The notes: generated by a model not told the origin, from the sequence alone. Numbered from the stretch's first letter, positions 4,577 through 64,000 are shown. The stretch: DNA of 64,000 bases from a virus (IMGVR_UViG_3300012016_000001:1-64000), one strand, 5' to 3'. Program-made: numbers and translations.

Positions 4577-4647
4577 GGGCAATTGTCCGAGCGATTAGGT
4601 GGCGGACTGCAAATCCGTCTAGACAGGTTTGACTCCTGTATTGCCTT
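4577..4647 (+). tRNA. tRNA-Cys (anticodon GCA)
   Basis: The anticodon arm and variable region CGGACTGCAAATCCGTCTAG closely resemble bacterial tRNA-Cys. Acceptor GGGCAAT/ATTGCCT, T-arm ACAGG-TTTGACT-CCTGT. Confidence 0.75.
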
Positions 4648-4686
4648 CATCAAATGATGTTGATTTTTTGCATATTAATGACTTTA

Positions 4687-4712
4687 GTGTCTGGTTCGTG
4701 AGAATAGGACAC
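4687..4712 (+). promoter_or_regulatory. conserved tRNA-leader hairpin (loop TGGTTCGTGAGAATAG)
   Basis: Stem GTGTC/GACAC enclosing the conserved loop, 9 nt upstream of the tRNA-Met 5' end. Member of a 6-copy family. Confidence 0.5.
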
Positions 4713-4721
4713 TTTTTACAT

Positions 4722-4793
4722 CGCAGGGTAGAGCAGTGGTAGCTCGCAAGTTTCATAAGCTTGAAGTCGTTAGTTCGAATCTAACCCCTGCAA
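4722..4793 (+). tRNA. tRNA-Met (anticodon CAT), C1:A72 mismatch
   Basis: D-arm GAGC-AGTGGTA-GCTC, anticodon stem CAAGT/GCTTG with loop TTCATAA, T-arm GTTAG-TTCGAAT-CTAAC. The unpaired 1:72 position recalls initiator-like tRNA. Confidence 0.7.
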
Positions 4794-4799
4794 CAAATT

Positions 4800-4883
4800 G
4801 GGAGTTTATTCCGTAAGTGGTAGCGGGGCTGACTGTAAATCAGCTTGCTTTTGCATCGGGGTGTTCGACTCACTCAGCTCCCA
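4800..4883 (+). tRNA. tRNA-Tyr (anticodon GTA), long variable arm
   Basis: Anticodon loop GACTGTAAATC typical of Tyr. Acceptor GGGAGTT/AGCTCCC, variable arm of about 13 nt, T-loop TTCGACT. Confidence 0.8.
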
Positions 4884-4887
4884 CTTT

Positions 4888-4959
4888 GGCCTTATAGTTC
4901 TAATGGTAAAACACCGCACTTGTAATGCGGATTTCTCAGTTCGATTCTGGGTAGGGCCT
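4888..4959 (+). tRNA. tRNA-Thr (anticodon TGT)
   Basis: Acceptor GGCCTTA/TAGGGCC, anticodon stem CGCA/TGCG with loop CTTGTAA, T-loop TTCGATT. It starts 5 nt after tRNA-Tyr. Confidence 0.8.
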
Positions 4960-5027
4960 CTATGCATCGGCTTAGGACTGTTGCGTTACGCTTCCTCATG
5001 GTGATACCTTTAAGGTAGAGGAAGAAA

Positions 5028-5086
5028 GGAGTACACACAGCAATGTTTTTATACAGTTATGATATTGCAGAGTTGTTTTGTACTCC
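5028..5086 (+). repeat. clamp repeat unit (GGAGTACA ... ACAGCAA ... TGTACTCC)
   Basis: Same architecture. It is followed by the terminator-like hairpin at 5091. Confidence 0.6.
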
Positions 5087-5090
5087 GTAT

Positions 5091-5116
5091 GAGGTTGGCT
5101 TTGTCCAACCTCTTTT
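5091..5116 (+). terminator. intrinsic-terminator-like hairpin (8-bp stem GAGGTTGG/CCAACCTC followed by TTTTG)
   Basis: Perfect inverted repeat followed by a T-run, immediately upstream of the aberrant tRNA-Lys candidate. Confidence 0.45.
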
Positions 5117-5205
5117 GCCCTCATCGTATATCGGTCAGTGCTGGAAACAGACGATTACCCCTGCCTTTTAAGCAGGTAAGCATGGTTCGACTCCATGTGG
5201 GGGCA
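5117..5205 (+). tRNA. aberrant tRNA-Lys candidate (anticodon TTT) with ~16 extra nt in the D region (89 nt)
   Basis: Acceptor GCCCTCA/TGGGGGC (one G.U), anticodon arm CCTGC-CTTTTAA-GCAGG, T-arm CATGG-TTCGACT-CCATG. The D region is too long to fold canonically. Confidence 0.4.
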
Positions 5206-5244
5206 CTATAAAAATCAAGACAATAAAAGTAGTTTTTAAGAAAT

Positions 5245-5376
5245 AAAGAAGTCTTACAGCAATAACAATTAATCTAAGTTTACCAAAAAGCGCTGAACTT
5301 GTAGTTCAATGGTAGAATACCTTTTTATTAAAAAGGAGATGACGGTTCGAATCCGTGTGGCAAAAAAGACTTCTTT
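5245..5376 (+). repeat. clamp repeat unit (AAAGAAGTCTT ACAGCAA ... AAGACTTCTTT) enclosing a tRNA-like element
   Basis: 10-11 bp complementary arms 120 nt apart. The ACAGCAA box sits right after the 5' arm. The enclosed 5292-5365 sequence is tRNA-like. Confidence 0.55.
5292..5365 (+). other. tRNA-like element with canonical D-arm and T-arm but unresolved acceptor; carries a 7-bp hairpin where the anticodon arm should be (loop TTATTAA if read as a 5-bp stem)
   Basis: D-arm GTAGTTCAATGGTAGAAT, T-arm ACGG-TTCGAAT-CCGT, internal hairpin CCTTTTT-ATT-AAAAAGG. No complementary acceptor strands were found. The element is nested inside a clamp repeat unit (5245-5376). Confidence 0.25.
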
Positions 5377-5379
5377 TAT

Positions 5380-5452
5380 AGAGCTATCCTCTAATAGGTT
5401 AGGAGACGTGACTGATAATCACGCAATCCCAGTTCAAGTCTGGGTAGCTCTA
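5380..5452 (+). tRNA. tRNA-Ile (anticodon GAT)
   Basis: Perfect acceptor AGAGCTA/TAGCTCT, anticodon stem CGTGA/TCACG with loop CTGATAA, T-arm CCCAG-TTCAAGT-CTGGG. Confidence 0.8.
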
Positions 5453-5601
5453 CAATCGTCCAAACAAAAAGTAATACAAACAAACATTTATCAAACTAAA
5501 CATTCAGCAAAACACAATAAGAATATTTCTGCTTAGGCAGAAGTGTTTTTAGTGTAAACTCCTGGAGTACGTGTACTCTGGGAGGGTTTTGTTTTGGACT
5601 C

Positions 5602-7228: not shown

Positions 7229-7301
7229 GGGAGAGTAGCTCAGTGGTTAAAGCAATAGTCGCTAAAACTATCGATCGAGGGTTCGAATCCCTCCTCTCCT
7301 G
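7229..7301 (+). tRNA. putative amber-suppressor tRNA (anticodon CTA, reads UAG); G at position 33
   Basis: Acceptor GGGAGAG/CTCTCCT (G1.U72), perfect 5-bp anticodon stem ATAGT/ACTAT with the 7-nt loop CGCTAAA (anticodon at 7262-7264), T-arm GAGGG-TTCGAATCCCTC. Confidence 0.6.
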
Positions 7302-26307: not shown

Positions 26308-27551
26308 AATTTCTTAAGGACTGGTTTTGATGATTCATATTTTCTATATTAGTTATAATAAAATTATAACAATATGGAAATTAATGAAAAAATTGAAACT
26401 GGAGTCAAAATGTACCTGAATGGTGATGGCACATTAACACAATTACAGAGTATACTTGGAATTAGTAAAGATTTAATAGTAGCTAGATTAAAGGAATTAG
26501 GATATACAATTAAAAGAGGCTATAAACTATCTACAGTAATAGGGTTAAAGGCTGCTACTGAAGAATATTTAGCTAATTATAATAATAATCCTAGTTTGAC
26601 TCAAATAGCTGCTAAACATGGAATAAAAAGACAAACTCTTTCTTCACACGTTAAAGAATTAGGTTATGAAGTTATTAATCATCAAGATAGATTGAAATTT
26701 GATAACACTATATTTGATAGCATTGATACAGAAGAAAAGGCTTATTGGTTAGGATTTATATTTGCAGATGGATATGTAAGTGATAATAATGATTTTGAAG
26801 TATCTTTAAGTATTAAAGATTTTACTCACTTAAATTTATTGCATTTATTTATGAAGACTGAAAAGCCTGTCGGATTTAATGAGACTAGATGTAGACTATG
26901 TGTGAGAGATACTCACTTAGTAAATACTCTTAAGTCTTATGGTTGTATACCAAGAAAATCCTTAGTCTTAGAATTTCCAGAAGAAAAAATCTTTAAAGAT
27001 ATTAAACTTATAAGACATTTTATAAGAGGATTTGTTGATGGGGATGGATGCATTACTTACATCAATAAGGAACATACAAAGCCTCAACTCTCTATTTTAG
27101 GAACAGAGCAATTTCTAAATAAACTTCAGGAGTATTTACCTATTGATTTTATACATCAATTAGGATATAATAATAAATCTAAGAGTTTAGTAACTAGAGT
27201 TTTATCCTTTAATGGAAGTACTGCTTACAATGTTTGTAAGTTTCTATATCAAAATTCTAAAGTGTACCTAGATAGAAAATATGAGAAATTTTTAGAAATT
27301 TGCCGTTCAGAGGAGGAATCTTCTGAATTATTACTGGGCAAAAACGGTGAAGGCTGTGATGCTCCCGCCGTGGTAAATTCAGAAATTGCGAAAGGTTCTG
27401 AATCACCGTACAGCGTAGAGAGTGAATAAATATAATCTCTCCAAGAGTGCCTGGCACCCCAACTGAAATAAGTGGGTGAAAACGTACGCGGGACTTAAGC
27501 AAATAAGAAGCTTAAGAAACTAAGATAAAAAGCTTAGTGGTAACAAAATCG
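26299..27551 (+). mobile_element. putative group I intron (1253 nt) carrying a LAGLIDADG homing endonuclease gene, inserted in the helicase Walker A codons
   Basis: The upstream exon ends in T (26298) and the intervening sequence ends in G (27551). Joining GGT-AGT-GGT | AAG-ACT-ACC restores GSGKTT. The endonuclease ORF is flanked by about 75 nt and about 120 nt of non-coding sequence. Confidence 0.55.
26374..27429 (+). CDS. LAGLIDADG homing endonuclease (double-motif) with N-terminal HTH repeats
   Basis: Two LAGLIDADG motifs: LGFIFADGYVS and IRGFVDGDGCI. It has its own start and is flanked by split helicase exons. Confidence 0.85.
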   Translation: MEINEKIETGVKMYLNGDGTLTQLQSILGISKDLIVARLKELGYTIKRGYKLSTVIGLKAATEEYLANYNNNPSLTQIAAKHGIKRQTLSSHVKELGYEVINHQDRLKFDNTIFDSIDTEEKAYWLGFIFADGYVSDNNDFEVSLSIKDFTHLNLLHLFMKTEKPVGFNETRCRLCVRDTHLVNTLKSYGCIPRKSLVLEFPEEKIFKDIKLIRHFIRGFVDGDGCITYINKEHTKPQLSILGTEQFLNKLQEYLPIDFIHQLGYNNKSKSLVTRVLSFNGSTAYNVCKFLYQNSKVYLDRKYEKFLEICRSEEESSELLLGKNGEGCDAPAVVNSEIAKGSESPYSVESE

Positions 27552-39573: not shown

Positions 39574-40501
39574 ACGACTAAGTATAGAGGCTCCTTAAGT
39601 TACTGCAGTGATGCAGTTCTTTTGGGAGATGCGATAGTCTGAACTCTATGGTAACATAGAGAGGAAATTTGAAGAAATTTCCCATCCAAACTTGTTTTCT
39701 CATAAAACACTTATTAAGTTTGTTCTATGTAATAAATGAAAATGTTATTTAAAATTTTTATGAAAATGGAACAAGAAGTACGTAAGTGTTGTATTTGTGG
39801 AGCGTCAGTAGGAAATGGAACTGACAAAGTTTACAAATTTTCAGATGGAAATATGTATTGCAAGAAGCACTATCTTCAGATGTATAGACATGGACATATA
39901 ATAGAAAGAACTATATATGATCCAAATGAATATATAGAATATGAAGATTATGCAGAATGTATATGTTATGATAAATCTGGAAATGAGAAAGGAAGAGTAA
40001 AAATAGATCTAGATAAAGTTTCTTTAATAAAAAAGCATAAAGTGTACATAAGAAAACAAAATGACAAAATTTATGCAGCGATTTCCATTGATAATAAAAA
40101 GGTAATGCTCCATAGATATTTAATGGAAATAATTAATGAAGAATATTCTATTAATAAAGTTGTTGATCATATAAATGGAGATTCTTTAGATAATAGGATT
40201 TCTAATTTAAGAATTTGTACACATAAACAAAATATGCAAAATATAAGAAAGAAAAATAAAATAGTAGGAGTATCTAAAAGTCCTAATAAAAATAATAGAT
40301 GGATTGCAAGAATAATGCATAATTATAAAACTATTAATTTAGGATATTTTGATACTTATGCAGAGGCCACTTTAGCTCGTATACAAAAAGAAAAGGAAAT
40401 CTGTGGAGAGTATGGGCCTAACAAGGATTTATTTTACGTTTTGGATCTCCCTTCTCCATTGGAAGAATTACAAAAATTTGTTCCAGAAGGGGTGTAACAG
40501 A
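39574..40501 (+). mobile_element. intervening sequence in nrdD (putative group I intron) encoding an HNH-AP2 homing endonuclease; exact splice sites not determined
   Basis: NrdD is split into two ORFs with an endonuclease gene between them. The non-coding flank 39574-39735 contains stable hairpins such as GGAAATTT-GAAG-AAATTTCC. This parallels the T4 nrdD group I intron. Confidence 0.5.
39736..40497 (+). CDS. HNH homing endonuclease with AP2 DNA-binding domain
   Basis: HNH motif HRYLMEII ... VDHINGDSLDNRISNLRICTHKQN. AP2-like motif GVSKSPNKNNRWIARIMHNYKTINLGYFDTYAEATLARIQ. Confidence 0.85.
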   Translation: MKMLFKIFMKMEQEVRKCCICGASVGNGTDKVYKFSDGNMYCKKHYLQMYRHGHIIERTIYDPNEYIEYEDYAECICYDKSGNEKGRVKIDLDKVSLIKKHKVYIRKQNDKIYAAISIDNKKVMLHRYLMEIINEEYSINKVVDHINGDSLDNRISNLRICTHKQNMQNIRKKNKIVGVSKSPNKNNRWIARIMHNYKTINLGYFDTYAEATLARIQKEKEICGEYGPNKDLFYVLDLPSPLEELQKFVPEGV

Positions 40502-47002: not shown

Positions 47003-47503
47003 TTGAATATGCTAGACATTGATAACATACATGTTGATTTAGATATAGTATTATCTAAAAAGACTACATTAAAGCAGTTACTTAATCCAACTGAGTTAGC
47101 TTCTTTAAAGTCTAAAGCTATTAAAAACCACTATGATGATGCAGCCATAATGGAAGCAGCTCATAGGCTTATTAAAGAGAACATTGCAGATTACTTAGAT
47201 AATTCTGATTTTCTTGATGCTAATGTAATATTAGAAACAGACCCTTATATAATTAAGGCTATGGAACTAATGCAAGCTAGTCAACGAGACGCTGGAATAT
47301 TACTTGTAGAAAAAGAGTATAAATATCCGGGATGTTGGGTAAATGATATAGCTAATGCATTAAGAGAACTTAAATGTAGTAGTGATATGTATAACACATT
47401 GGTATGGGATGCTTATTATGTACATAATTATACTAATAATGAAAATATCCCGGGATGGAAAAACCTTCAAGATGTGTTAGAAGATTACTATGACACACTA
47501 TGA
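47003..47503 (+). CDS. hypothetical protein
   Basis: 166-aa ORF. Confidence 0.45.
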   Translation: MNMLDIDNIHVDLDIVLSKKTTLKQLLNPTELASLKSKAIKNHYDDAAIMEAAHRLIKENIADYLDNSDFLDANVILETDPYIIKAMELMQASQRDAGILLVEKEYKYPGCWVNDIANALRELKCSSDMYNTLVWDAYYVHNYTNNENIPGWKNLQDVLEDYYDTL

Positions 47504-48708
47504 CATTAGTTACTAGAGACAGTAAAGGTAAAATCAGAGTCGTTGATATATGGACGAATCACGACTCTGATTCCTCTACTATATGTAGAGAGACTTACCA
47601 ATATCTAGGAAAACATACAAGACAACCTGATATTGTAATAGAAGCTGGAAAAGCTGGGCGTGATATTGCAGCACAATGTGAATTACAATTTATGTCTCAG
47701 TTAAAAAGTTATAAAGATAAAGGTTATAAAGAATTAGAAAAAGACATATCTAAGTATACAGAAAAAGAACTAAATGAAATAGTTGGAGATACTATTACTA
47801 ATCAGCATGGTGTACAAAAACCCATGTTAGCTAAGCAAGCTGACAAAGTGTCTCAAAAGGCTATTGATAAAGTTCCTTACTGGTACGCGAGCAGAAAAAT
47901 AGATGGAGTACGCTGTTCTTTCTATTTAGATGGGGATACTATAAGAACATCTAGTAGAGGAGGAGAGGACTACGATTGTGCTTGTATGCACTTTATAAAT
48001 AATGAAAAATTAAAGAAATTCTATGAAAGGCATCCTGGAATAGTCTTAGATGGTGAACTATATAAACACGGACGGAGCCTTCAACAAATCTCAGGCGCTG
48101 CAAGACTTGAAAAGAATGCTGTAGACTGTGACTGGCTAGAATATTATATTTATGACATCGTAGACACTAACAGAACGTTTGAAGAAAGACTTAAAGTGTT
48201 GGCTGCAATTAAATATGAACTTGGACTCGGATTCAATCCAGAAAGAGAATGGAAAGAAGGAGAACTACAGTTCCAAATGGTTCCACAACAAAAGGTGTCT
48301 GGCTTCAAGAATATAAATATACTTCACGATATTTATGTATCAGAAGGATGGGAAGGAGTCGTTATCAGAGACCCATCTAAAGTGTATAGACCTAATGGGC
48401 GTACCAATGATATGATAAAATTTAAGAAGTATAAAGATGCAGAATTTTTAGTTATAGATTATGAACTAGGTCTTAGAGGTACTGAAGATATGACCTTTAC
48501 TTGTACTACTCCTGCTGGACTAGAGTTTAAGGCTAAGCCTTGGGGAGATAGAGCTATTAAAGAGGAATATGTAAAGAACTTTAAAACTAAGTATCAATAT
48601 AAGTTAGCAAAGATTAAGTTTTTCTATTATTCTAACGGAAATAATGAAAAGACTGGAGTTCCACTTCAACCATCACTTATATGTTTCCGTGATAAATCTG
48701 ATATGTAA
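47500..48708 (+). CDS. ATP-dependent DNA ligase
   Basis: Adenylation motif I SRKIDGVR (KxDG), followed by nucleotidyltransferase motifs and an OB-fold region. Confidence 0.85.
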   Translation: MTLVTRDSKGKIRVVDIWTNHDSDSSTICRETYQYLGKHTRQPDIVIEAGKAGRDIAAQCELQFMSQLKSYKDKGYKELEKDISKYTEKELNEIVGDTITNQHGVQKPMLAKQADKVSQKAIDKVPYWYASRKIDGVRCSFYLDGDTIRTSSRGGEDYDCACMHFINNEKLKKFYERHPGIVLDGELYKHGRSLQQISGAARLEKNAVDCDWLEYYIYDIVDTNRTFEERLKVLAAIKYELGLGFNPEREWKEGELQFQMVPQQKVSGFKNINILHDIYVSEGWEGVVIRDPSKVYRPNGRTNDMIKFKKYKDAEFLVIDYELGLRGTEDMTFTCTTPAGLEFKAKPWGDRAIKEEYVKNFKTKYQYKLAKIKFFYYSNGNNEKTGVPLQPSLICFRDKSDM

Positions 48709-49162: not shown

Positions 49163-50553
49163 AATTACAAGTAAGTAAAAATGCAAACGTAAACTACCTT
49201 TCTAAGGTAATAGAAATAAAAGAATTTGTTAAGCATCCAGATCCCAAAGTTGAAAGAATTAAGTGTGCCGTAGTAGATGGATTTATAATTACAATAGGAA
49301 TAGATAGTCAGCCTGGTAAATATGTCTATTTTCCTGTGTTATCACAGATAAATCCTAATCTATTACAATATCTTAATTTATATAGGAATGCTGAAAAGAA
49401 TAAAGACCCAGAGAAAACTGGATATTTTGAAGATAAAGGAATAGTAAAAGCAATCAACTTAAGAGGTGTAAAATCGGAAGGTTTCCTACTTCCCTTAGTA
49501 GACTTACAAAACTTTATTATAGACCAAGTTAATGTTGATTTAGGAGATGTAGAGGCTAATGTTGAATTTGATGAAGTAGAACATGAAGGTAAAACGTTCT
49601 GGATATCGAAAAAGTACGTCGTCCCTGTTAGAGGTGAAGGAACTCAATCACAAGGTGGAAAAGTACGCAAGCAAAAGAAAGGACTCGATAAAATTATTGA
49701 CTCCCAATTTAGATTCCATTATGACACAGTTATTCTTAAGAAATGTCCTTACGTAATTCAACCCGATGACCTTATACACATTAGCAGCAAGTGGCACGGC
49801 ACTTCTGGTATATCTGCTTACGTGCTATGTCATAAGAAACTTAACTGGAAAGAACGCATCGCTAGATGGTTAACTGGAGAATCATTTGATACTTATGACT
49901 ATATATATGCTTCTCGTACTGTAATTAAAAATAAATATTACAATGAGGGAGTAACGTCAGGTTATTATGATTGCGATGTATGGAAATACGCAGATGAATA
50001 TATTAGACCTTTTCTAGATAAAGGAATGACTGCCTATTATGAAATAGTCGGCTATCTTCCTAATGGAAAAATGATACAAAAAGATTATGATTATGGATGT
50101 GTTCCTCCTGTAAAAATAATTGACCCAAATACAGGTAAAGAGGTAGTTCAATATAAACAAGGAAAACAATTTAAGGTATATGTTTATAGAATAACTCTTA
50201 CTAATGTAGATGGTAAAGTACACGAATTTTCTGCACATGAAGTACAAATATGGTGTAAACAGAGGAGCATTATGCCAGTTCTAGAATACTATTATGGTTA
50301 TGCCAGGGATTTATATCCAGATGCTGTCGGAGATAATTGGTCTGTTAATTTCATGGATAATCTTGCCAATGATAAGAATTTTCATATGGAGCAGAATTCG
50401 CCTGAGTGCATTAATAAAGTTCCTCATGAAGGATTAGTCATTAAGAAAGAATCTATGAAATCAGAGGCTTGGAAAGTTAAGTGTTTTAAATTCTTAGGTA
50501 AAGAACAAGACGCTGCTCTTGCTGGAGAGACTAATATTGAGGACAATGCGTGA
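49159..50553 (+). CDS. putative RNA ligase (Rnl2-like nucleotidyltransferase motif I KxHGT) with N-terminal extension
   Basis: ISSKWHGTSG resembles the T4 Rnl2 lysine-adenylate motif EKIHGTN. The gene lies between the DNA ligase and Pnkp. Confidence 0.4.
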   Translation: MKLQVSKNANVNYLSKVIEIKEFVKHPDPKVERIKCAVVDGFIITIGIDSQPGKYVYFPVLSQINPNLLQYLNLYRNAEKNKDPEKTGYFEDKGIVKAINLRGVKSEGFLLPLVDLQNFIIDQVNVDLGDVEANVEFDEVEHEGKTFWISKKYVVPVRGEGTQSQGGKVRKQKKGLDKIIDSQFRFHYDTVILKKCPYVIQPDDLIHISSKWHGTSGISAYVLCHKKLNWKERIARWLTGESFDTYDYIYASRTVIKNKYYNEGVTSGYYDCDVWKYADEYIRPFLDKGMTAYYEIVGYLPNGKMIQKDYDYGCVPPVKIIDPNTGKEVVQYKQGKQFKVYVYRITLTNVDGKVHEFSAHEVQIWCKQRSIMPVLEYYYGYARDLYPDAVGDNWSVNFMDNLANDKNFHMEQNSPECINKVPHEGLVIKKESMKSEAWKVKCFKFLGKEQDAALAGETNIEDNA

Positions 50554-51395
50554 AACAAATAACGATTAAACAAAGTATTACCAATAGAGATAGGGATTCT
50601 GTTAATCTTTATCTCAAGGATATTGGTAAAGTAAAGCTCTTATCTGCTGAACAAGAAAAAGAAATAGCTCGTAAGGCTAAGGCAGGAGATAAGAGAGCAA
50701 GAGATAGACTTATTGCAGCTAATACTAGATTTGTTATTACAGTAGCTAAACAATATCAAGGACAAGGTCTAGATTTAGAAGATTTAATAAGTGAAGGTAA
50801 TATAGGTCTTATTAAGGCAGCTGATAAATTTGACCCAGATAAAGGATATAAATTTATTTCCTATGCTGTATGGTGGATAAGACAATCTATATTACAAGCA
50901 TTATCAGATAAATCTAGAACTATAAGATTACCTTTAAATCAAGTGGCTATGCTTAATAAAGTAAGAAAAGCTATTTCTGAATTTGCAGGTAAAAATGAAA
51001 GAGACCCTTCAATGAAGGAACTTTCTGAAATTACTGGTATAAATGAATCTAAAATTACTAGTATTCTTAATATGTCAGTACATATGTTATCTGTAGATTC
51101 TCCATTTAAAGATGAAGAAGAAGGTACTCTTATTGATATTATCCCAAATAATAATAGTCCAAAAGCTGATGCAGCACTTATAAAAGCATCTAAAGAGCAT
51201 GACCTTGTTAAGATATTATCTATACTTGGTCCACGTTCTCATGATATAATTCGTATGTACTTTGGACTGGGGGTTAGAGAAATGACTCTAGATGAAATAG
51301 GAAATAAATTTGGAGTTACTAGTGAAAGAATAAGACAGTTAAAGGAAAAAGCGTTAGATGCTATTAAACCAAATGTTCAAAAATATCTAAAGTGA
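50550..51395 (+). CDS. RNA polymerase sigma-70 family sigma factor
   Basis: Region 2 DLISEGNIGLIKAADKFDPDKGYKFISYAVWWIRQSI and region 4 HTH LDEIGNKFGVTSERIRQL. Confidence 0.9.
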   Translation: MKQITIKQSITNRDRDSVNLYLKDIGKVKLLSAEQEKEIARKAKAGDKRARDRLIAANTRFVITVAKQYQGQGLDLEDLISEGNIGLIKAADKFDPDKGYKFISYAVWWIRQSILQALSDKSRTIRLPLNQVAMLNKVRKAISEFAGKNERDPSMKELSEITGINESKITSILNMSVHMLSVDSPFKDEEEGTLIDIIPNNNSPKADAALIKASKEHDLVKILSILGPRSHDIIRMYFGLGVREMTLDEIGNKFGVTSERIRQLKEKALDAIKPNVQKYLK

Positions 51396-54738: not shown

Positions 54739-55134
54739 ATGAGCCTGAATGTAATTACGACTAAAGGAAACTTATTGAAGAAGATGACTAAAGAAGAATT
54801 TTTATCTAAACGTACACCAGTATTTGTAGACCCAGAGATTGGGACTATAACACTGGTTAATAATTCTAATTTGAAAGATAAAGATTTTGCAGAAATATTT
54901 TCAAATATAAAAATTAGTTGGCTAGACACAACAAGAGGATACCTACTAGATGATTTTCTGATGTTGTATATAAACGATTATGAAATTCCACGTTTTCATA
55001 TAGGTTGTTGTACTTACTTTTTCAATATGTTTCCTAATATAAACTGGTTAGGATTAGGGTGCAATAAAGGTAAACCTGGAGAAATATGGATACCAAAATT
55101 AATAGTTAGTAAAGGTGATATATGTAGTCTCTAA
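54739..55134 (+). CDS. hypothetical protein
   Basis: 131-aa ORF. Confidence 0.4.
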   Translation: MSLNVITTKGNLLKKMTKEEFLSKRTPVFVDPEIGTITLVNNSNLKDKDFAEIFSNIKISWLDTTRGYLLDDFLMLYINDYEIPRFHIGCCTYFFNMFPNINWLGLGCNKGKPGEIWIPKLIVSKGDICSL

Positions 55135-57388
55135 TCAAACATCTTTCTATTCTAGATTTTCTAGAATTTCTATAAAAGAATCTTTAGATATTATAAAACA
55201 ATGGGAAAGTATTCAATATGACTCTGAGACTCTTGGTAAGGATGCTCACTGTGGTAAACCTCTTTCTGCGCAATTTGGTTCTCCTAAAAAGGATATTCAA
55301 ATTGTAGTTGATTGGACAACAGTAGATGCTCGTAATTATAAGGAAGTTTTAGAAAGTAAACTAATTGTAGGTCAGAATTTAAAGTTTGATTTACAATGGT
55401 TATATAACTATAGTATTACTCCCTTAAGAGTATATGATACTATGATTGCTGAGCAACTCATTTATTTAGGATTTCCTCCTGCAGGTAAACCAGGAGGAAT
55501 ATCCTATGCTTTGAATGAAATTGCGATGCGTTATCTTGGTAAGTATATTGATAAAACTGTTAGAGGTCAGATTCAGTGGAGAGGATTAGATGATGACGTA
55601 ATAGAATATGCAGCAAACGATGTAGTAGACCTAGTAGATATAGCTAAAAAGCAAATAGAGATATGTAAAGAACGTAAATGTATGCGAGCTCTTCAAATTG
55701 AAATGTCTTTTGTTCCTGTTATAGCTTACTTAGAGTGGTGTGGAATTAAATTAGACGTTACTAAATGGAAAGCTAAGATGCAAAAAGACGAAAATAATAG
55801 ACTTAATAGACTTGAAAAATTAAATCAATTCCTTGTTAAATGGTATCAAGATAATAATGGAAAAGATAATATGGTTAGTGTTCCGTATATAGTATCTTCC
55901 TTTATAAAGGAGAATATACAAGAACCTCCACCTAATGCTAAACCTACTTCTCGCCCATATAAAAAGGAGGGAAATGAAGACGATCTTTTCCAGAATTATT
56001 CTATTCCATTCTATATTACAAATAAAAGTGGAAAGATAATCCCATTTATAAAAATAGATTTACAAGGTGATTTATTTCTAGGTTTTAATACCGGTCCACA
56101 ATGTGTACTTAATTGGGATAGTTCTGACCAAGTTATTTATTTCTGTCAACTACTAGGATTTAATACTAAAGTAGAAGATAAAGTTACTGGTGAAGATAAA
56201 GATTCTGTAGTGGAAAAGGCTCTAAAAGTCCAAAAAGGAATAAATGATGAATTTTTAAATCTATATTTTGATTATAAAGAAGCATCTAAAGTGTGTAGTA
56301 CTTATGGTCAAACATATCTAAATGCAATTAATCCTAATACAGGAAGAATTCATACTAACTTTAAGCAATTAGGAGCTTCATCAGGAAGAATGGCATGTGG
56401 AAGTAAACAAGCTAATGATGATTTAGCTAAACTTAAACACGAAGAACTTTCTAAACTACCTTCTAAATTAAGAAAATGTGGTTATCCACAATTACAAAAT
56501 CTTCCAGCTGACCATGATACTAGAGGGGCATTTGTACCTGAAAAAGGAAATCTAATGTGTTCTTGTGATTATTCTGCTCTAGAAAGTAGACTTGGTGCAG
56601 ATATATATCAAGAACAATCTATGATAGATGAATATCTATATGGTACTGGAGATATTCATTCTTTAACAGCTAAACATTGTTTTCCTAAAGAACTAGAAGG
56701 TATTGAAATTAAAGATATTAAGAAACTTAGACCTGATTTGAGAAGTAGAGCTAAGCCAGTAGAATTTTCTCAACAATTTGGAGGAAGTGCAAAAGCTATT
56801 CAAAGTGCTTTAGGTTGTACTGCAGCAGAGGCAAAAGAAATAGCAGAAGCATATAACAGTGGTTTTGCTGGTATAGCACGCTTCAAAGATATAGGGTTTA
56901 AGAAAGTATGTAGAGATGGTTATGTTCTTATATGTAAATATACTGGACATAGAACTTATATGCCAGATTGGCCAGAGTGGAGAAAGGCTATGGATGATGA
57001 AGAATTTTGGGATGAATATGATGCTGCTAAAGACACTTTACCATATAAAGAGTTTAGTAAAACAGCAGTCTATCATAAAGCTTCTGAATTAAGAAAAACT
57101 TCTTCTAAATGGTCTAGACTAGCTCTTAATTCTCCTACTCAAGGTACTGGCATTATCATTTTAAAAGATGCTATGTCTAACTTCTTTAAATGGATAATTG
57201 ATAATAAGTTATTCAATATAGTTAAAATATGTGATTTAGTACATGATGAAGCTGTAATCGAATATCCAAAATCTATGCCAGAAGTAGCTAACATTCTCAA
57301 GGATATAATGGAAAAGTCCGCAGAAAAATTCTGTAAGGCTTTACCTATTCCTGCTGCTCCAGAAGTTGGAATGTGCTGGTTGCATTAA
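55115..57388 (+). CDS. DNA polymerase I family (Pol A) with 3'-5' exonuclease domain
   Basis: Pol A motif A CDYSALESRL, motif B RSRAKPVEFSQQFGGSA, motif C LVHDEAVIE. N-terminal exonuclease-like region. Confidence 0.9.
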   Translation: MIYVVSNQTSFYSRFSRISIKESLDIIKQWESIQYDSETLGKDAHCGKPLSAQFGSPKKDIQIVVDWTTVDARNYKEVLESKLIVGQNLKFDLQWLYNYSITPLRVYDTMIAEQLIYLGFPPAGKPGGISYALNEIAMRYLGKYIDKTVRGQIQWRGLDDDVIEYAANDVVDLVDIAKKQIEICKERKCMRALQIEMSFVPVIAYLEWCGIKLDVTKWKAKMQKDENNRLNRLEKLNQFLVKWYQDNNGKDNMVSVPYIVSSFIKENIQEPPPNAKPTSRPYKKEGNEDDLFQNYSIPFYITNKSGKIIPFIKIDLQGDLFLGFNTGPQCVLNWDSSDQVIYFCQLLGFNTKVEDKVTGEDKDSVVEKALKVQKGINDEFLNLYFDYKEASKVCSTYGQTYLNAINPNTGRIHTNFKQLGASSGRMACGSKQANDDLAKLKHEELSKLPSKLRKCGYPQLQNLPADHDTRGAFVPEKGNLMCSCDYSALESRLGADIYQEQSMIDEYLYGTGDIHSLTAKHCFPKELEGIEIKDIKKLRPDLRSRAKPVEFSQQFGGSAKAIQSALGCTAAEAKEIAEAYNSGFAGIARFKDIGFKKVCRDGYVLICKYTGHRTYMPDWPEWRKAMDDEEFWDEYDAAKDTLPYKEFSKTAVYHKASELRKTSSKWSRLALNSPTQGTGIIILKDAMSNFFKWIIDNKLFNIVKICDLVHDEAVIEYPKSMPEVANILKDIMEKSAEKFCKALPIPAAPEVGMCWLH

Positions 57389-59458: not shown

Positions 59459-59919
59459 ATGGTGGTGGAGAAATCATAAGTGGATAGACAAAAGAAAATT
59501 TTACGTATTGCCTAAGGAGTATGACGTATTTTGGTTAAATTCTTGGCAGAAGGAAAAAGCAAAAAGTTTTAAAAAAGAACATAAATCCAACTTCTACCAG
59601 TATAGATTTACTCCTGGACCAATAGGTGTAGGCTGTAGTATTTGGTGTGAAGATTGTGACCCTTATGATATAACTGATTATGATATATGGTAAATGAAGA
59701 AAAACAACAAAAAGTAGAAGCAATGCAGGAACTTCTTGAAAATGAAGATATTAAAAGAATGTGGCTGAAAATGCACACTCCTTGGATACATACAGATAAA
59801 AAGGTAGGACGTAATGAAATATGTCCCTTCTGTGATTCAGGAAAGAAGTATAAGCATTGTGAATGCTATAAGAAGAAAGATGTAGCTAAATTCAGATTAG
59901 ATACAAAACATACAAAAGG

Positions 59920-60537
59920 ATGGAACTAATAAAGAAATATGAGAATGGGGACAACCTGTTCTTTACATCTGATACCCACTTCTATCATGCCAACATTATA
60001 AAGTTTTGTGGTCGTCCATTTGAAGACGTAGAAGAAATGAATAAAACTTTAATAGACAACTGGAACAAAACTGTTGGAAAGAATGATATTGTTTATCATC
60101 TTGGAGACTTTTGCTTTGCAGGTTCAGCTGCATGGTACTCTTTACTTAGTCAATTAAATGGAAGAATTCACTTAATAGTTGGAAATCATGATGAAAAGAA
60201 TCTTAGGCAGGGTTATTCCCAAATGTTTGAGTCAACATCCTATCAGCAGCGCTTACTTATTGAAGGTTATAATGTGTACCTTAATCATTATCCTTATCTG
60301 TGTTATCCAGGGTATAAGCCCTATACAATGCAGCTTTTTGGTCATATTCATAGTAGCCACAATAAGTTTGATGGAATGGACGCTCAAATTGCGAAAGCTC
60401 AGTTACAACCATCTCAATATGATGTGGGAGTAGATTGGAATAACTTTACTCCCATTAGTTGGGAAGAGATAAAACAAAAGATTATTAAACAAAAAGAAGA
60501 AAATGTTAATATGTACGGTAAATCCAAAAAATTATGA
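59920..60537 (+). CDS. metallophosphoesterase
   Basis: Motifs SDTHFYH, HLGDFCF and GNHDEKN match the calcineurin-like phosphoesterase signature. Directly upstream of the NAD cluster. Confidence 0.6.
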   Translation: MELIKKYENGDNLFFTSDTHFYHANIIKFCGRPFEDVEEMNKTLIDNWNKTVGKNDIVYHLGDFCFAGSAAWYSLLSQLNGRIHLIVGNHDEKNLRQGYSQMFESTSYQQRLLIEGYNVYLNHYPYLCYPGYKPYTMQLFGHIHSSHNKFDGMDAQIAKAQLQPSQYDVGVDWNNFTPISWEEIKQKIIKQKEENVNMYGKSKKL

Positions 60538-61103
60538 ACAAAACTCTAATTATCGTAGACCCACAGTATGACTTTATAGAAGGTGGAAAACTTCCAGTAG
60601 AAGGAGGTAAACAAGCGTTAGACAATGTTGTTGATTACCTTAATTCTGGAGAGGTATCTTTAGTCATCATCACACAAGATTGTCATAATGGAATGCATTG
60701 CTCATTTAAAGAGCAAGGAGGACCATGGCCAGAACATTGTGTTGAAGGAACTCATGGAGCAGAAATTTATAAACCTATATTAGATGCTATAGAGAAAAAC
60801 CATATTATGGTCTATTATCTACAGAAAGGACATTACTTAGAAGAGTATTCTGCTTTTCGTAGACAAACAGAAGGATATGCTCACTGGAAAGAGTATTCTA
60901 CAGAAGATGATAGAGAACCTTATATTCAGTTCCATGAAGATGAAATAGTTCAAATTTGTGGATTAGCTGGAGATGTTTGTGTTATGAGGACTGCTATAAT
61001 CCTTAAAGATATCAAACCCGTAATCATTGAAGATTTAACTGCTTCTTTAAATGCTGATAACTTTAGGAAACTTGCAGACATAAATGGAATTACAATAGTA
61101 TGA
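60534..61103 (+). CDS. pncA: nicotinamidase / isochorismatase-family hydrolase (PncA-like)
   Basis: LIIVDPQYDFIEGGKL, catalytic Cys context ITQDCHNGMHCSF, EHCVEGTHGAEI. Confidence 0.75.
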   Translation: MNKTLIIVDPQYDFIEGGKLPVEGGKQALDNVVDYLNSGEVSLVIITQDCHNGMHCSFKEQGGPWPEHCVEGTHGAEIYKPILDAIEKNHIMVYYLQKGHYLEEYSAFRRQTEGYAHWKEYSTEDDREPYIQFHEDEIVQICGLAGDVCVMRTAIILKDIKPVIIEDLTASLNADNFRKLADINGITIV

Positions 61104-61915
61104 TTAATAATCCAGTTTTAGGAGCAATCATAGGGGACATAATAGGTGTTCCCTATGAGTTCCTTCGAGTGCCTGGGACTAGTATTCCTAAGAATTTCCC
61201 ATTGTTCAAGAAAGATAGTCATTATTCAGATGATTCTGTAATGACTCTAGCTGTAGCAAGATGGTTATTAGAAAAAGATTTAAGTTCATCTGCCTTAATA
61301 AAGTGCATGCAGGAAGTTGGACAAGCACATCCAAATGCAGGTTATGGTGGAATGTTCAGAAGATGGCTATGGGATGAAAATCCAGTCCCATATAATAGTT
61401 GGGGAAATGGCTCAGCTATGCGTGTCAGTCCAGTTGCCTGTGCTTTTGATACAGAACAAGATGTCTTGAAATATGCAAAAATATCAGCTGATGTGTCACA
61501 TAATCACCCAGAAGGTGTAAAGGGTGCACAAGCTATTGCTTTTGCTATTTGGGCAGCACAAGATTGTTGGGGAAAAGATCCTATTAAATTTGAAGTAAGA
61601 GATTTTACTCAGTATGATTTAAATAGGACTCCTAGAGAAATCATAGATTCTGGATATTCTTTTGAAGTAAGTTGTCAAAAGTCTGTGCCTGAAGCAATAT
61701 GCTGTTTCTTAGATAGTAATTCTTATGAGGAGACTGTAAGAAAGGCTGTCTTACTTAAAGGAGATACAGATACTCAAGCTTGTATGGCTGGAGCTATAGC
61801 TGCAGCTTATTGGGGAATTCCAGAAGATATTGCAAGAAAAGGTATTGACTTACTTCCTGGAGACCTATTTGATATTTTGTATGATTTTAGTGACGAATTT
61901 AATTTACCATTATGA
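61100..61915 (+). CDS. ADP-ribosylglycohydrolase family protein
   Basis: GAIIGDIIGVPYE, HYSDDSVMTLA and GNGSAMRVSPV are ARH/DraG family signatures. Confidence 0.85.
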   Translation: MINNPVLGAIIGDIIGVPYEFLRVPGTSIPKNFPLFKKDSHYSDDSVMTLAVARWLLEKDLSSSALIKCMQEVGQAHPNAGYGGMFRRWLWDENPVPYNSWGNGSAMRVSPVACAFDTEQDVLKYAKISADVSHNHPEGVKGAQAIAFAIWAAQDCWGKDPIKFEVRDFTQYDLNRTPREIIDSGYSFEVSCQKSVPEAICCFLDSNSYEETVRKAVLLKGDTDTQACMAGAIAAAYWGIPEDIARKGIDLLPGDLFDILYDFSDEFNLPL

Positions 61916-63093
61916 TTTTAAGTATTTTAGACACTGATTTGTATAAGTTTACGACATCGTATGCTTATCAAAAGTTATACCCTAAAGCAATGGGTACGTT
62001 TGAGTATGTAGACAGAAATAACAACGTCTATGAGGATTCTTTTTTAATAGCCTTGAAAGAACAAATTAATATCCTAGAGACTATTAAATTAACACCTTCT
62101 GAATTCTTCAGTATACTTAATAATAAGTGGTTATCTAGATTTATTCCAACTTCTTATTGGGAATGGTTAAAGCAATTTAACTTTGAACCTAATAAGATTA
62201 AAGTCTGGCTTGATGAAAATAAACATTTACATATTACAGTTACTGATTACTTATATAAGGTGACTCTATATGAAGTTCCGTTACTTTATACAGTATCTGA
62301 ATGCTACTATAAGTACTATAATAAGTTAGCTAATTATGATTTGATGTTTGATAATTTAAAACAGAAAATCACTTTTGCTAATGAAGAAAATCTAATATTT
62401 TCTGAATTTGGCACTAGAAGAAGGTATTCTTCTAATATACATGAACAAGTTATTAAATATCTAAAAGATCATTCTAAAACTTGTGTAGGAACTTCTAATG
62501 TTTACTTTGCATTAAAATATGATATGATGCCCTGTGGTACTTTTCCACATGAATGGGTAATGTTCCATGGTGCAGTATGGGGATTTCAACAAGCTAATGA
62601 ACTTGCTATGAGAGACTGGGTAAGATGCTATGATGGAGATTTAGGAACTGTACTTGTAGATACATACACTACTAAATTTTTCTTAAAGCAATTCTCACGT
62701 AAGTATAGTAAGTTGTTTGATGGTCCTCGTATTGACTCTGGAGATGAAAGAGAGCTTGGAGATTTATTCATAGAGCATTATAAAGCTCTTAATATAAATC
62801 CACTTACTAAAACTTTAGTAATGAGTAATGCTCTTACATTTCCTAAGTTTAAAGAGATTAGAGATTATTTTGCTGGACGTATTAATGTTGTCGCTGGAAT
62901 AGGCACTAATCTTACCAATGACTGTGGAGTTGTACCACTCAATGAAGTTATGAAACTTATAGAATGCCAAGAATATGAAGGAGCACCTAAACTCCCTTGT
63001 ATTAAACGTTCTGATGATAAAGGTAAACGTCTGGGCAATGCTGTACAACATGATATCTTAGACCATATTTTATTAAATGCCTCGCAAGTCTAA
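61912..63093 (+). CDS. pncB: nicotinate phosphoribosyltransferase (PncB, NAPRTase)
   Basis: FSEFGTRRRYS, the NAPRTase signature FxxFGTRR. Length 393 aa. Confidence 0.85.
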   Translation: MILSILDTDLYKFTTSYAYQKLYPKAMGTFEYVDRNNNVYEDSFLIALKEQINILETIKLTPSEFFSILNNKWLSRFIPTSYWEWLKQFNFEPNKIKVWLDENKHLHITVTDYLYKVTLYEVPLLYTVSECYYKYYNKLANYDLMFDNLKQKITFANEENLIFSEFGTRRRYSSNIHEQVIKYLKDHSKTCVGTSNVYFALKYDMMPCGTFPHEWVMFHGAVWGFQQANELAMRDWVRCYDGDLGTVLVDTYTTKFFLKQFSRKYSKLFDGPRIDSGDERELGDLFIEHYKALNINPLTKTLVMSNALTFPKFKEIRDYFAGRINVVAGIGTNLTNDCGVVPLNEVMKLIECQEYEGAPKLPCIKRSDDKGKRLGNAVQHDILDHILLNASQV

Positions 63094-63358
63094 TAAAAAG
63101 GAAAAGGTGGTTATGCCTACTAGACCAGTAGGTGTACCACCCAAGCCTAAAGAAAAGTTGACTCCTGGACAAGTCTTGTATTGTTGGTATCCTCCAACTA
63201 ATGAATTCTATAAGAGGGTATATTTAAGAGATTATAAGGGAGAAGATGAAATCTTATGCGCAGATCCAGATACTAAGCAGCAATGGATTTTAAATCAATC
63301 TCATTTACATAGTACAATTTTAACTGAAAAAGAGTATGTGGAACAAATGGATAAATGA
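63077..63358 (+). CDS. hypothetical small protein
   Basis: 93-aa ORF between pncB and nadE. It overlaps the nadE start. Confidence 0.35.
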   Translation: MPRKSNKKEKVVMPTRPVGVPPKPKEKLTPGQVLYCWYPPTNEFYKRVYLRDYKGEDEILCADPDTKQQWILNQSHLHSTILTEKEYVEQMDK

Positions 63359-64000
63359 ATCTGTAGAGTGCCTTAAATGGTATATAGAAAGAAACAAACT
63401 TAAGAGTGTAGTTCTAGGATTAAGTGGAGGTATTGATAGTACTGTATCTGCAGTAATTTGTCATCTAGCTACTAAAGATAATCCTAACTGTACGTTTATC
63501 GGTAGAAGTCTCCCAATTAAAAATGAAGGAGATGATACATCGATAGCTAAAAAGCTTGGACAAGTTCTTTGTAACGATTTTGCAGAAGTGAATTTGTATG
63601 ATTCTTATAAGTTCTTTAGAGATTCATTCTATAAAGAGGAAGAGGAATCAAAGGCTACTCCAATTTCAGATGGAAACATAATGGCTCGTATCCGTATGAT
63701 ATATCTTTATCAACTTGCTTCCCTTTATAAAGGAATGGTTATAGATACGGATAATTTAAGTGAACATCTTTTAGGTTTCTATACACTTCATGGAGATGTT
63801 GGTGACTATAACATAGGAATCAGATACCTCTATAAGCATGAAATATGGGAACTTGCAAAAGAACTGACTAGTTGGGTTCCAAATGCAAAGAAGTTCATAG
63901 AGGAATCTATGGCTCTTGATCCTACAGATGGTAATGTTGGTGGTACAGATATGGACCAGATTGCTCCTGGAATGACATATGCTGATGTTGATTACGTACT
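63336..64000 (+). CDS. nadE: NH3-dependent NAD+ synthetase NadE (3' end truncated by window)
   Basis: PP-loop motif VLGLSGGIDSTV, with a reading frame from the ATG at 63336 that is open to the window end. Not in the ORF track because it is truncated. Confidence 0.85.
   Translation, partial: MWNKWINESVECLKWYIERNKLKSVVLGLSGGIDSTVSAVICHLATKDNPNCTFIGRSLPIKNEGDDTSIAKKLGQVLCNDFAEVNLYDSYKFFRDSFYKEEEESKATPISDGNIMARIRMIYLYQLASLYKGMVIDTDNLSEHLLGFYTLHGDVGDYNIGIRYLYKHEIWELAKELTSWVPNAKKFIEESMALDPTDGNVGGTDMDQIAPGMTYADVDYV

Follow-up and report, generated by a model that had tools for sequence, protein, structure and literature searches.

A phage operon encoding the four enzyme families of deamidating NAD+ salvage

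Several phages rebuild NAD+ as a counter to host defence, with NARP1 and NARP2 (10.1101/2024.02.11.579819) and NARP3 (PMC13464706) as precedents. Gut 'NAD-jumbo' phages of Bacteroidota, such as Kuafu_71, carry clustered pncB-nadD-nadE genes (Li et al. 2024, Microbiome, PMC11662467); the same authors mention phage pncA and propose, without experiment, a counter-defence against NAD+ depletion. A viral sequence of 64,000 nucleotides (IMGVR_UViG_3300012016_000001:1-64000, hereafter the window), part of a 193,962 bp contig from a wolf gut metagenome, ends in a group of genes assigned to NAD+ salvage families. This locus raises the question of whether a complete route from nicotinamide to NAD+ is encoded, and what purpose it would serve in the infected cell.

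Operon structure and predicted enzymes

The genes between positions 59920 and 64000 are contiguous, translationally coupled and all located on the plus strand, with 4-nt overlaps (ATGA) joining successive genes at 60534, 61100 and 61912. They encode, in this order, a metallophosphoesterase, a PncA-like protein, an ARH3-like ADP-ribosylhydrolase, PncB, a small ORF, and the first 222 codons of NadE (Table 1). The five contiguous, co-oriented genes named in the original prediction were all found, and Pfam matches for the named families confirmed their identities, but the small ORF between PncB and NadE had been overlooked. Searches of Pfam, NCBIfam and PHROG gave no match to this ORF, which is kept only in the five closest phage loci (51-56% identity). 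Beyond the window, the operon continues on the source contig with NadD, a Nudix hydrolase, YqeY and dNMP kinase, followed by a strong terminator (14-bp stem and a run of nine T).

Table 1. Features of the operon; window-equivalent coordinates past 64000 correspond to the source contig coordinate + 51911.
Feature	Position	Strand	Length	Remarks
Metallophosphoesterase	59920..60537	+	205 aa	Pfam Metallophos 7.8e-9
PncA-like, predicted nicotinamidase	60534..61103	+	189 aa	Pfam Isochorismatase 3.5e-12
Compact ARH3-like ADP-ribosylhydrolase	61100..61915	+	271 aa	Pfam ADP_ribosyl_GH 5.5e-40
PncB, nicotinate phosphoribosyltransferase	61912..63093	+	393 aa	TIGR01514
Small ORF	63113 or 63077 to 63358	+	81 or 93 aa	overlaps NadE start
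NadE, NH3-dependent NAD+ synthetase	63336..64000	+	272 aa	first 222 of 272 codons in window; end at 64154 on source contig
NadD-like, predicted adenylyltransferase	64156-64683		175 aa	source contig, 2 nt past NadE stop; TIGR00482
Nudix hydrolase	64631-65299			source contig, beyond window
YqeY	65292-65723			source contig, beyond window
dNMP kinase	65720-66307			source contig, beyond window
Terminator	66313-66344			source contig, 3' of last operon gene

Catalytic and metal-binding residues are preserved in all operon enzymes. In the PncA-like protein, the triad D9/K98/C149 and the metal ligands D49/H51/H55/H68 are all present and align to PncA from P. horikoshii and M. tuberculosis. The top PDB matches are all nicotinamidases (1ilw, 1.2e-19; 3r2j; 3pl1), and D9, D49, H51, H68 and C149 do not vary even in phage homologues of only 26% identity. 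The protein is predicted to catalyze the first step, in which nicotinamide, the base freed at any NAD+ cleavage, would be converted to nicotinic acid and NH3. PncB passes the NCBIfam equivalog TIGR01514 (344.8 bits versus a cut-off of 269.55) and matches the Pfam families NAPRTase (PF04095, 1e-44) and NAPRTase_N, the N-terminal domain (2.9e-24). Its H213 in the motif GTFPHEW, invariant across eight phage sequences down to 27% identity, is by analogy the predicted phospho-histidine, and the enzyme would couple nicotinic acid with PRPP (+ATP) to give NaMN in the second step.

The original prediction had suggested that NadD may lie just downstream of the window, and a NadD-like gene indeed starts there, directly behind NadE. 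Its product contains the motif H14xGH17 and matches TIGR00482 (3.9e-31) with 108.6 bits, marginally under the cut-off of 112.45; the NadR adenylyltransferase domain is matched only weakly and in part (1.4e-7; 31 bits versus a cut-off of 341). This putative adenylyltransferase would catalyze the third step, NaMN to NaAD. Full-length NadE as encoded on the source contig matches Pfam NAD_synthase (1.4e-38) and exceeds the cut-off of TIGR00552 (123.3 versus 63.65 bits). It is a single-domain N-type ATP pyrophosphatase with the P-loop SGGIDS (SGGxDS motif, residues 30-35) and without a glutaminase domain, and is expected to amidate NaAD to NAD+ with ATP and NH3 in the fourth step. With NadD present on the source contig, the route nicotinamide, nicotinic acid, NaMN, NaAD, NAD+ is complete in four steps; the Preiss-Handler logic of the original prediction was correct, with the PncA, PncB, NadD and NadE families all encoded. 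Gene families, active sites, pathway completeness and operon structure are established by these analyses, and from them we infer the enzyme activities and the flow of substrates. Counting against the salvage reading, the PncA-like protein scores far below the NCBIfam nicotinamidase equivalog cut-off (NF008623, 46.9 versus 174 bits), and NadD falls marginally under its own.

Conservation in phages and comparison with known NAD+ systems

A PncB relative is encoded on 374 IMG/VR contigs. In the best 80 of these phage loci, many of them closely related (52 fall in one PncB cluster at 75% identity), PncB is accompanied by PncA in 73, NadE in 69, NadD in 64 and a Nudix protein in 66 cases. When counted by PncB lineage (12 clusters at 75% identity), PncA is found in nine, NadE in seven, NadD in six and Nudix in eight. 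In 80 cellular loci, mostly from Bacteroidota genomes, the corresponding numbers near PncB are 5 (PncA), 1 (NadE), 3 (NadD) and 0 (Nudix). Clustering of the NAD+ salvage genes is thus phage-specific, and the high phage versus low cellular counts indicate that the cluster was assembled and kept in phages rather than captured as a host operon. Bacterial Preiss-Handler salvage uses the same four families with the same inferred chemistry, but its genes are scattered in the 80 cellular genomes, whereas the phages have them joined in a single operon with translational coupling. The module recurs in related IMG/VR contigs of 100-212 kb, and annotated equivalents exist in the cultured jumbo phages Sinorhizobium phage Phosso and Agrobacterium phage Atu_ph07.

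The cluster had been predicted to represent a distinct route. It does differ from NARP1, NARP2 and NARP3, but the claim of a new arrangement was overstated: gut phages were already known to carry clusters of this kind (Li et al. 2024, PMC11662467). Likened by description, the NAD-jumbo phages of that study and the phage studied here share an animal gut origin and a pncB, nadD and nadE set that is entirely phage-encoded and clustered. A host in the Bacteroidota, as for the Kuafu clade, may also apply to the present phage: its nearest cellular PncB homologues are from Bacteroidales, Bacteroides and Alistipes MAGs (47-54% identity), a crAss001_48-related protein is encoded in the window, and GC is about 33%. 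At 193,962 bp, the contig, possibly a partial genome, falls slightly short of the 200 kb applied as the cut-off for NAD-jumbo phages; its operon additionally contains PncA, Nudix and, unusually, the ARH3-like hydrolase.

NARP2 (Nampt and Nmnat; NadV/NatV of Vibrio phage KVP40) also starts from nicotinamide, is associated with a Nudix module, and uses a type II phosphoribosyltransferase followed by a HIGH-motif adenylyltransferase, as which the NadD-like protein is encoded near the phosphoribosyltransferase here; NAD+ is rebuilt in the infected cell, as predicted for the present operon. In contrast to NARP2, the route is deamidating: PncA and the nicotinate-specific PncB (TIGR01514) replace Nampt, and NadE re-amidates, giving four enzymes instead of two, with Nudix as a separate gene. 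The phosphoribosyltransferase scores above the cut-off of the nicotinate equivalog and is not a Nampt/NadV, which would yield NMN directly; PncA and NadE, needed only for a deamidated route, are encoded alongside.

NARP1 (Adps and Namat) carries an extra ADP-ribose-processing enzyme, RyDEP or Adpp, in some phages only, and the ARH insertion is similar in this respect. The ARH fold differs from both RyDEP (glycosidase, RyR repeat) and Adpp (phosphatase, macro domain). No PRPP-synthetase-like protein and no second phosphoribosyltransferase family were found by Pfam in window ORFs of at least 60 aa and the downstream genes; unlike in NARP1, PRPS-like Adps and Namat are missing and ADP-ribose is not a direct building block. 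NARP3 (PnuC transporter and NadR-like protein; PMC13464706) is likewise a phage-encoded NAD+ restoration system, but takes up nicotinamide riboside and relies on a kinase/adenylyltransferase; the Pfam matches in the window and 10 kb downstream included neither PnuC nor NadR homologues. The cluster is therefore none of the already described NARP operons.

Possible roles in the infected cell

We consider it likely, with a probability of roughly 0.6, that the phage encodes in this operon a self-contained NAD+ salvage pathway of the deamidating (Preiss-Handler) type, whose driver is most likely host NADase immunity. In this reading, the ARH3-like hydrolase is an optional passenger that would most likely strip ADP-ribose off an O-linked conjugate. 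The Nudix protein would probably handle the other product of NAD+ cleavage or related dinucleotides, for example by converting ADP-ribose to AMP and ribose-5-phosphate, the latter being used by the host to make PRPP again. The PDB entries that match it best are NudJ and DR_1025, and the comparison showed no particular resemblance to known ADP-ribose pyrophosphatases, which counts against this putative substrate.

A general auxiliary metabolic module, supplying NAD(P)+ for phage DNA and nucleotide synthesis or compensating for host shut-off with no specific link to immunity, is a possible though less favored explanation. The operon lies between PolA/ThyX and dNMP kinase in an early replication and nucleotide-metabolism module, and NrdD, dUTPase and a dCTP-deaminase-like gene are also encoded in the window. 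ThyX, which needs NADPH, occurs within 8 kb in 59 of the best 80 phage loci, and Li et al. favor the view that the NAD-dependent enzymes of the phages are supplied with NAD+ independently (PMC11662467). However, the search of the 64-kb window for phage enzymes that consume NAD+ gave none: ART, Sir2, macro and NADAR domains were not found, the DNA ligase encoded there is ATP-dependent, and Bacteroidota, the putative hosts, have a PncB of their own. The near-universal presence of PncA in the cluster points to reuse of an NAD+ breakdown product, i.e. to nicotinamide being recycled within the cell, and not to nicotinic acid taken from outside.

Less probable, and in our view doubtful, is an extended reconstitution operon in which ARH, Nudix and perhaps the phosphoesterase strip ADP-ribose conjugates or cleave ADP-ribose-based signals, feeding PRPP and NAD+ synthesis. 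The predicted all-helical fold of ARH (AlphaFold pLDDT 92.6) is nearest to ARH3 (6g1p, 5zqy; TMq 0.75-0.81) and MJ1187. The Asp-Asp and Asp-x-Asp-Thr binuclear metal site and the catalytic Glu of the ARH/DraG family are present, and the residues concerned (E20, D44/D45, D222/D224/T225) are invariant in 32 homologues. Compared with ARH3 (ADPRHL2), the protein is shorter (271 versus about 347 aa), only 23-25% identical, phage-borne and mobile within the genome. The ARH3 class cleaves O-glycosidic ADP-ribose linkages, ribose-ribose bonds included. In favor of such an extension, ARH is precisely inserted as one gene with 4-nt overlaps to PncA and PncB, and in LR756500, an unrelated phage of 462 kb, the genes for Nudix, phosphoesterase, a deoxyribosyltransferase-like protein, PncB, ClpP and ARH lie within 5 kb. 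Precedents are RyDEP, inserted into NARP1 of one phage and missing from a close relative (PMC13232231), and Adpp, a phosphatase encoded in NARP1 operons.

Against it, ARH accompanies PncB in just 4 of the best 80 IMG/VR phage PncB loci and adjoins it in 5 of 80 ARH loci, being found elsewhere in replication modules or beside NrdD. In related phages, orthologues (59-60% identity) adjoin NrdD on its upstream side, approximately 20 kb away, and in the close relative L003 the gene is absent, with the PncA stop directly overlapping the PncB start. ARH is an optional passenger, a recent sub-lineage-specific insertion of one gene into the operon, rather than the core member of the route originally proposed. 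The phosphoesterase fares no better as a core member. It belongs to the large family phrog_547 ('phosphoesterase', 2.8e-56), generic among phages, and its metal motifs are intact (D18/H20, D63, N89/H90, H123, H142/H144); the best PDB match, Aquifex aq_1665 (1xm7, 1.8e-13), is without known function. Of the best 80 IMG/VR phage loci, 59 have it at most 8 kb from PncB, but these represent only 4 of the 12 PncB lineages, and its distance to PncA is usually 2-4 kb. NAD+ metabolism is probably not its specific role.

That bacterial DNA with host NAD+ genes was mis-assembled or mis-binned with phage sequence is highly improbable and already refuted by the phage context: although two database 'phage' PncB matches have bacterial flanks (Acinetobacter 'phage' MD-2021a, and Moraxella phage Mcat17, beyond attR), every gene in the window lies on one strand, base composition is uniform (GC about 33%), phage-type PolA, PNKP, N4 gp49-like and crAss001_48-like proteins, 22 tRNAs and homing endonucleases are encoded, and the synteny is shared with many IMG/VR contigs of 100-200 kb, while the genes are not clustered in cellular loci.

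The literature searched yielded no experiment on a deamidating NAD+ route of a phage. The higher ATP expenditure and twice the gene number of NARP2 count against an anti-defence reading, as does the position between ThyX and dNMP kinase, which suits a plain metabolic booster equally well. By analogy with the NARP systems, an anti-defence role of the salvage operon is nevertheless plausible. The operon would serve to keep NAD+ levels up during infection, and its most likely selective driver would be host NADase immunity by SIR2, TIR or similar effectors. With this driver, the operon would be the functional counterpart of NARP2, only longer and with four enzymes.

Organization of the NAD+ operon and assignment of its enzymes

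All five genes of the original prediction (phosphoesterase, PncA, ADP-ribosylglycohydrolase [ARH], PncB and NadE) are present on the plus strand at 59920-64000, a region that comprises six ORFs. The encoded enzymes matched their Pfam families with E-values from 7.8e-9 (weakest) to 1e-44 (strongest). Adjacent genes share 4-nt overlaps, indicating translational coupling. An 80-aa ORF (59687-59929) with a weak C-terminal Cys-rich SEC-C-like motif (E 0.0095) is located immediately 5' of the phosphoesterase gene, a position kept in 36 of 80 related loci. A scan for sigma-70 promoters was uninformative (45 sites versus 49.5 expected).

ORFs of the NAD+ operon within the window
Feature	Position	Strand	Basis
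Metallophosphoesterase	59920-60537	+	Pfam
Isochorismatase-fold, PncA-like protein	60534-61103	+	Pfam
ADP-ribosylglycohydrolase (ARH)	61100-61915	+	Pfam
Nicotinate phosphoribosyltransferase (PncB)	61912-63093	+	Pfam
Small ORF without assigned family	63077/63113-63358	+	
NAD synthetase (NadE)	from 63336, truncated at window end	+	

The source scaffold L001 (193,962 bp, wolf gut metagenome) was identified by exact protein matches; adding 51911 to its coordinates gives those of the window. On L001, NadE continues past the window to a full length of 272 aa, and a NadD-type adenylyltransferase gene (175 aa) starts 2 nt past its stop codon, where the original prediction had placed it. Genes for a Nudix hydrolase (222 aa), a YqeY-like protein and a dNMP kinase follow. 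Directly 3' of the dNMP kinase gene lies a strong hairpin terminator with a 14-bp stem containing eight GC pairs and a subsequent run of nine Ts (L001 14402-14433, window-equivalent 66313-66344). Past it, very long genes (1535 aa and >965 aa) that gave no Pfam match run on the minus strand, converging here with the plus-strand replication/NAD unit. As judged from the gene assignments, the Preiss-Handler pathway is complete on L001.

PncB scored 344.8 bits, above the 269.55 cut-off of the NCBIfam nicotinate phosphoribosyltransferase equivalog TIGR01514, and its H213 in the GTFPHEW motif is kept even in phage homologues with only 27% identity. NadE also exceeded its cut-off (TIGR00552); it was assigned to the NH3-dependent type because the SGGIDS loop is present and no glutaminase domain was found in the full-length protein. 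NadD contains the HxGH motif and scored slightly below its cut-off (108.6 versus 112.45 bits). The PncA-like protein scored poorly with the curated nicotinamidase model (46.9 versus 174 bits); its best solved-structure matches are all nicotinamidases (1ilw, 3r2j, 3pl1). The triad Asp9-Lys98-Cys149 and the metal ligands Asp49, His51, His55 and His68 are in place, with D9, D49, H51, H68 and C149 invariant even in phage homologues as distant as 26% identity. Since PHROGs v4 contains no match to PncB and places the PncA-like protein in phrog_19305, a PHROG of unknown function, standard phage annotation pipelines would under-report the pathway.

The Nudix box of the Nudix hydrolase is intact. Comparison with PDB sequences gave NudJ and DR_1025 as best matches and a weak match to the NadM Nudix domain (E 0.013), and yielded no substrate assignment. 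A proline 16 residues past the Nudix box (P110) is taken by us as a weak hint of an ADP-ribose (ADPR) pyrophosphatase.

Phage context and conservation of the gene cluster

The window is phage DNA. All of its genes lie on one strand and encode PolA, PNKP, DnaB-like and SF1/SF2 helicases, NrdD with an NrdG-like protein, dUTPase and ThyX, together with a sigma factor, N4 gp49-like and crAss001_48-like proteins and homing-endonuclease-like ORFs. The DNA ligase (47500-48708) is ATP-dependent, not NAD-dependent, and the sigma-70-family factor (50550-51395) is full-length with regions 1.2, 2, 3 and 4 all present. Homing-type ORFs are found at 26374-27429 (LAGLIDADG-like) and 39736-40497 (HNH). The DNA polymerase A ORF (55115-57388) comprises 757 aa from a GTG start, versus 648 aa in the public gene call; in the close relative L003, approximately 940 nt (4585-5527) break the match to the polymerase, which suggests an intein or homing element. 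Between 2739 and 12489, 22 tRNA genes and a tmRNA are densely arrayed, the tmRNA (10705-11064) specifying the tag GENNTTPRAKVVSIVYRAAA. One suppressor-type tRNA (anticodon CTA, 7229-7302) would read UAG, hinting at TAG stop recoding in part of the phage genome, as in some gut phages.

When IMG/VR was scanned with an alignment of PncB, 374 viral contigs were retrieved, and the best 80 loci were examined with 8-kb flanks. Because many of these are close relatives, they were collapsed at 75% identity into 12 PncB lineages. For comparison, the scan was also run on prokaryotic genomes, one for each species, and 80 cellular loci were taken from it.

Genes near PncB in phage and cellular loci
Gene	Phage loci	Phage lineages	Cellular loci
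PncA	73/80	9/12	5/80
NadE	69/80	7/12	1/80
NadD	64/80	6/12	3/80
Nudix	66/80	8/12	0/80
Phosphoesterase	59/80	4/12	0/80
ThyX	59/80	4/12	0/80
ARH	4/80	1/12	0/80

The genes cluster in phage but not in cellular loci, which argues for an assembly on the phage side that was kept by selection rather than for a captured host operon. With PncB relatives on 374 IMG/VR contigs, the module is common in gut phages of 100-200 kb. The nearest cellular PncB sequences derive from Bacteroidales, Bacteroides and Alistipes MAGs (47-54%), with Porphyromonas and Flavobacteriia next, and the phage host is probably a member of the Bacteroidota. When the 4-kb region was compared with GenBank phages at the nucleotide level, no match was obtained; relatives were found at the protein level only. 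Among cultured jumbo phages, Sinorhizobium phage Phosso carries annotated NadE, PncB, a MutT-like gene, NMNAT and a PncA-like "hydrolase", and Agrobacterium phage Atu_ph07 a PncA-like gene, an ADPR pyrophosphatase and PncB. In Phosso, a deoxyribosyltransferase gene adjoins the NAD cluster. PncB matches from Acinetobacter phage MD-2021a and Moraxella Mcat17 were discarded because they lie in bacterial flanking sequence, in the latter past attR.

The ARH insertion and the phosphoesterase

The predicted ARH model (pLDDT 92.6) has ARH3 and MJ1187 as nearest solved folds (TMq 0.75-0.81), and 32 homologues all retain the catalytic Glu20 together with the metal ligands Asp44/Asp45 and Asp222/Asp224/Thr225. 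The family is large, numbering no fewer than 7,996 proteins (E≤1e-10) and occurring on 278 IMG/VR contigs. Only five of 80 ARH loci have PncB nearby, four of them from this sub-lineage, and ARH was accordingly rejected as an obligatory pathway step. At the 75 other phage loci the neighbours are replication genes only (HD hydrolase, helicase, ThyX-like gene), and no recurrent NAD+, ART or macro partner was observed; the 64-kb window itself revealed no domain of the ADP-ribosyltransferase, sirtuin, macro or NADAR type. Related phages of this group carry an ARH orthologue (59-60% identity) immediately upstream of NrdD, and on one 183-kb contig this orthologue is approximately 19 kb away from the NAD cluster. 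In L003 no ARH is present between PncA and PncB, the stop codon of the former overlapping the start of the latter. Thus, ARH is a floating accessory gene that was inserted precisely into the operon in this sub-lineage. A loose functional link of ARH to NAD+/ADPR metabolism is still conceivable from gene proximity in an unrelated, distant 462-kb phage (LR756500.1), where a loose island (7554-12654 of locus L008) contains a 303-aa Nudix protein, a phosphoesterase, a nucleoside 2-deoxyribosyltransferase-like gene, PncB, ClpP and ARH, with neither NadE nor NadD detected within 10 kb.

The phosphoesterase was assigned to phrog_547, a large family of generic phage proteins, and its closest structural relative has no known function. 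A core role, e.g. as an ADPR/cADPR phosphohydrolase like ADPRibase-Mn, was rejected on this basis; in addition, its spacing to PncA is variable and it is missing from most of the distant PncB lineages. The parts given to both proteins in the originally predicted pathway were therefore overstated.

Proposed function and relation to known NAD+ reconstitution pathways

In the best-supported reading, the operon would encode a complete deamidating salvage route from nicotinamide via nicotinic acid, NaMN and NaAD to NAD+. Expressed alongside the replication genes, it would keep NAD+ available in the infected cell, while the Nudix enzyme probably processes ADPR or related dinucleotides. PncA is nearly always present and its sole use would be to feed nicotinamide into the route, which points to recycling of an NAD+ breakdown product. 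NAD+ depletion is a frequent end-point of bacterial immunity, and such recycling is compatible with a response to NADase immunity, but also with general NAD+ turnover; for this reason the anti-defence role predicted from the gene content is considered likely, but no more than that.

Three phage NAD+-rebuilding pathways, NARP1, NARP2 and NARP3, have been demonstrated experimentally (10.1101/2024.02.11.579819; PMC13464706). The cluster described here differs from all of them (Adps + Namat, Nampt + Nmnat and PnuC + NadR-like, respectively). PncA, PncB and NadE are not mentioned in the founding paper of NARP1 and NARP2 (10.1101/2024.02.11.579819), and the survey by Iyer et al. 2022 is limited to NadV, NadM and NadR. 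Full salvage or Preiss-Handler pathways were reported for 174 of 668 gut jumbo phages (Li et al. 2024, PMC11662467). The outline of the original prediction is sound and its pathway complete, but its novelty was overstated. The literature searched contained no experimental work on a phage route of the deamidating type. NARP1 operons provide recent precedents for an NAD+ operon that has taken up an ADPR-processing enzyme, namely RyDEP in phage DyoEdafos, missing from its relative ChutneyChips (PMC13232231), and a phosphatase in extended operons.

That the operon is a fourth, deamidating reconstitution pathway with the ARH3-like glycohydrolase as a working partner is improbable, at roughly one chance in eight. 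ARH would then cut O-glycosidic bonds to ADP-ribose that host immunity has formed, candidates being the ribose-ribose bonds of the 2'/3'cADPR Thoeris signal or ADP-ribose on phage macromolecules. The Nudix enzyme would convert the freed ADPR to ribose-5-phosphate as a source of PRPP; cleaved NAD+ would in this way be recycled in both of its halves, and the operon would be an ARH-based counterpart of RyDEP-NARP1.

The deamidating phage route was hitherto known from annotation alone. New here are the tight operon, its assembly by phages instead of copying from a host, and its frequency in 100-200 kb gut phages; the ARH3-like insertion is one modest new feature of this cluster and provides, with L001 and L003, a natural with/without pair for the function of a phage ARH3-like enzyme. 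Phage-specific clustering and the wide distribution sharpen the case for the operon, a clearly delimited candidate for a fourth pathway of NAD+ reconstitution. Since the likely hosts are Bacteroidota, the module may also bear on NAD+ and nicotinic acid metabolism in the gut.
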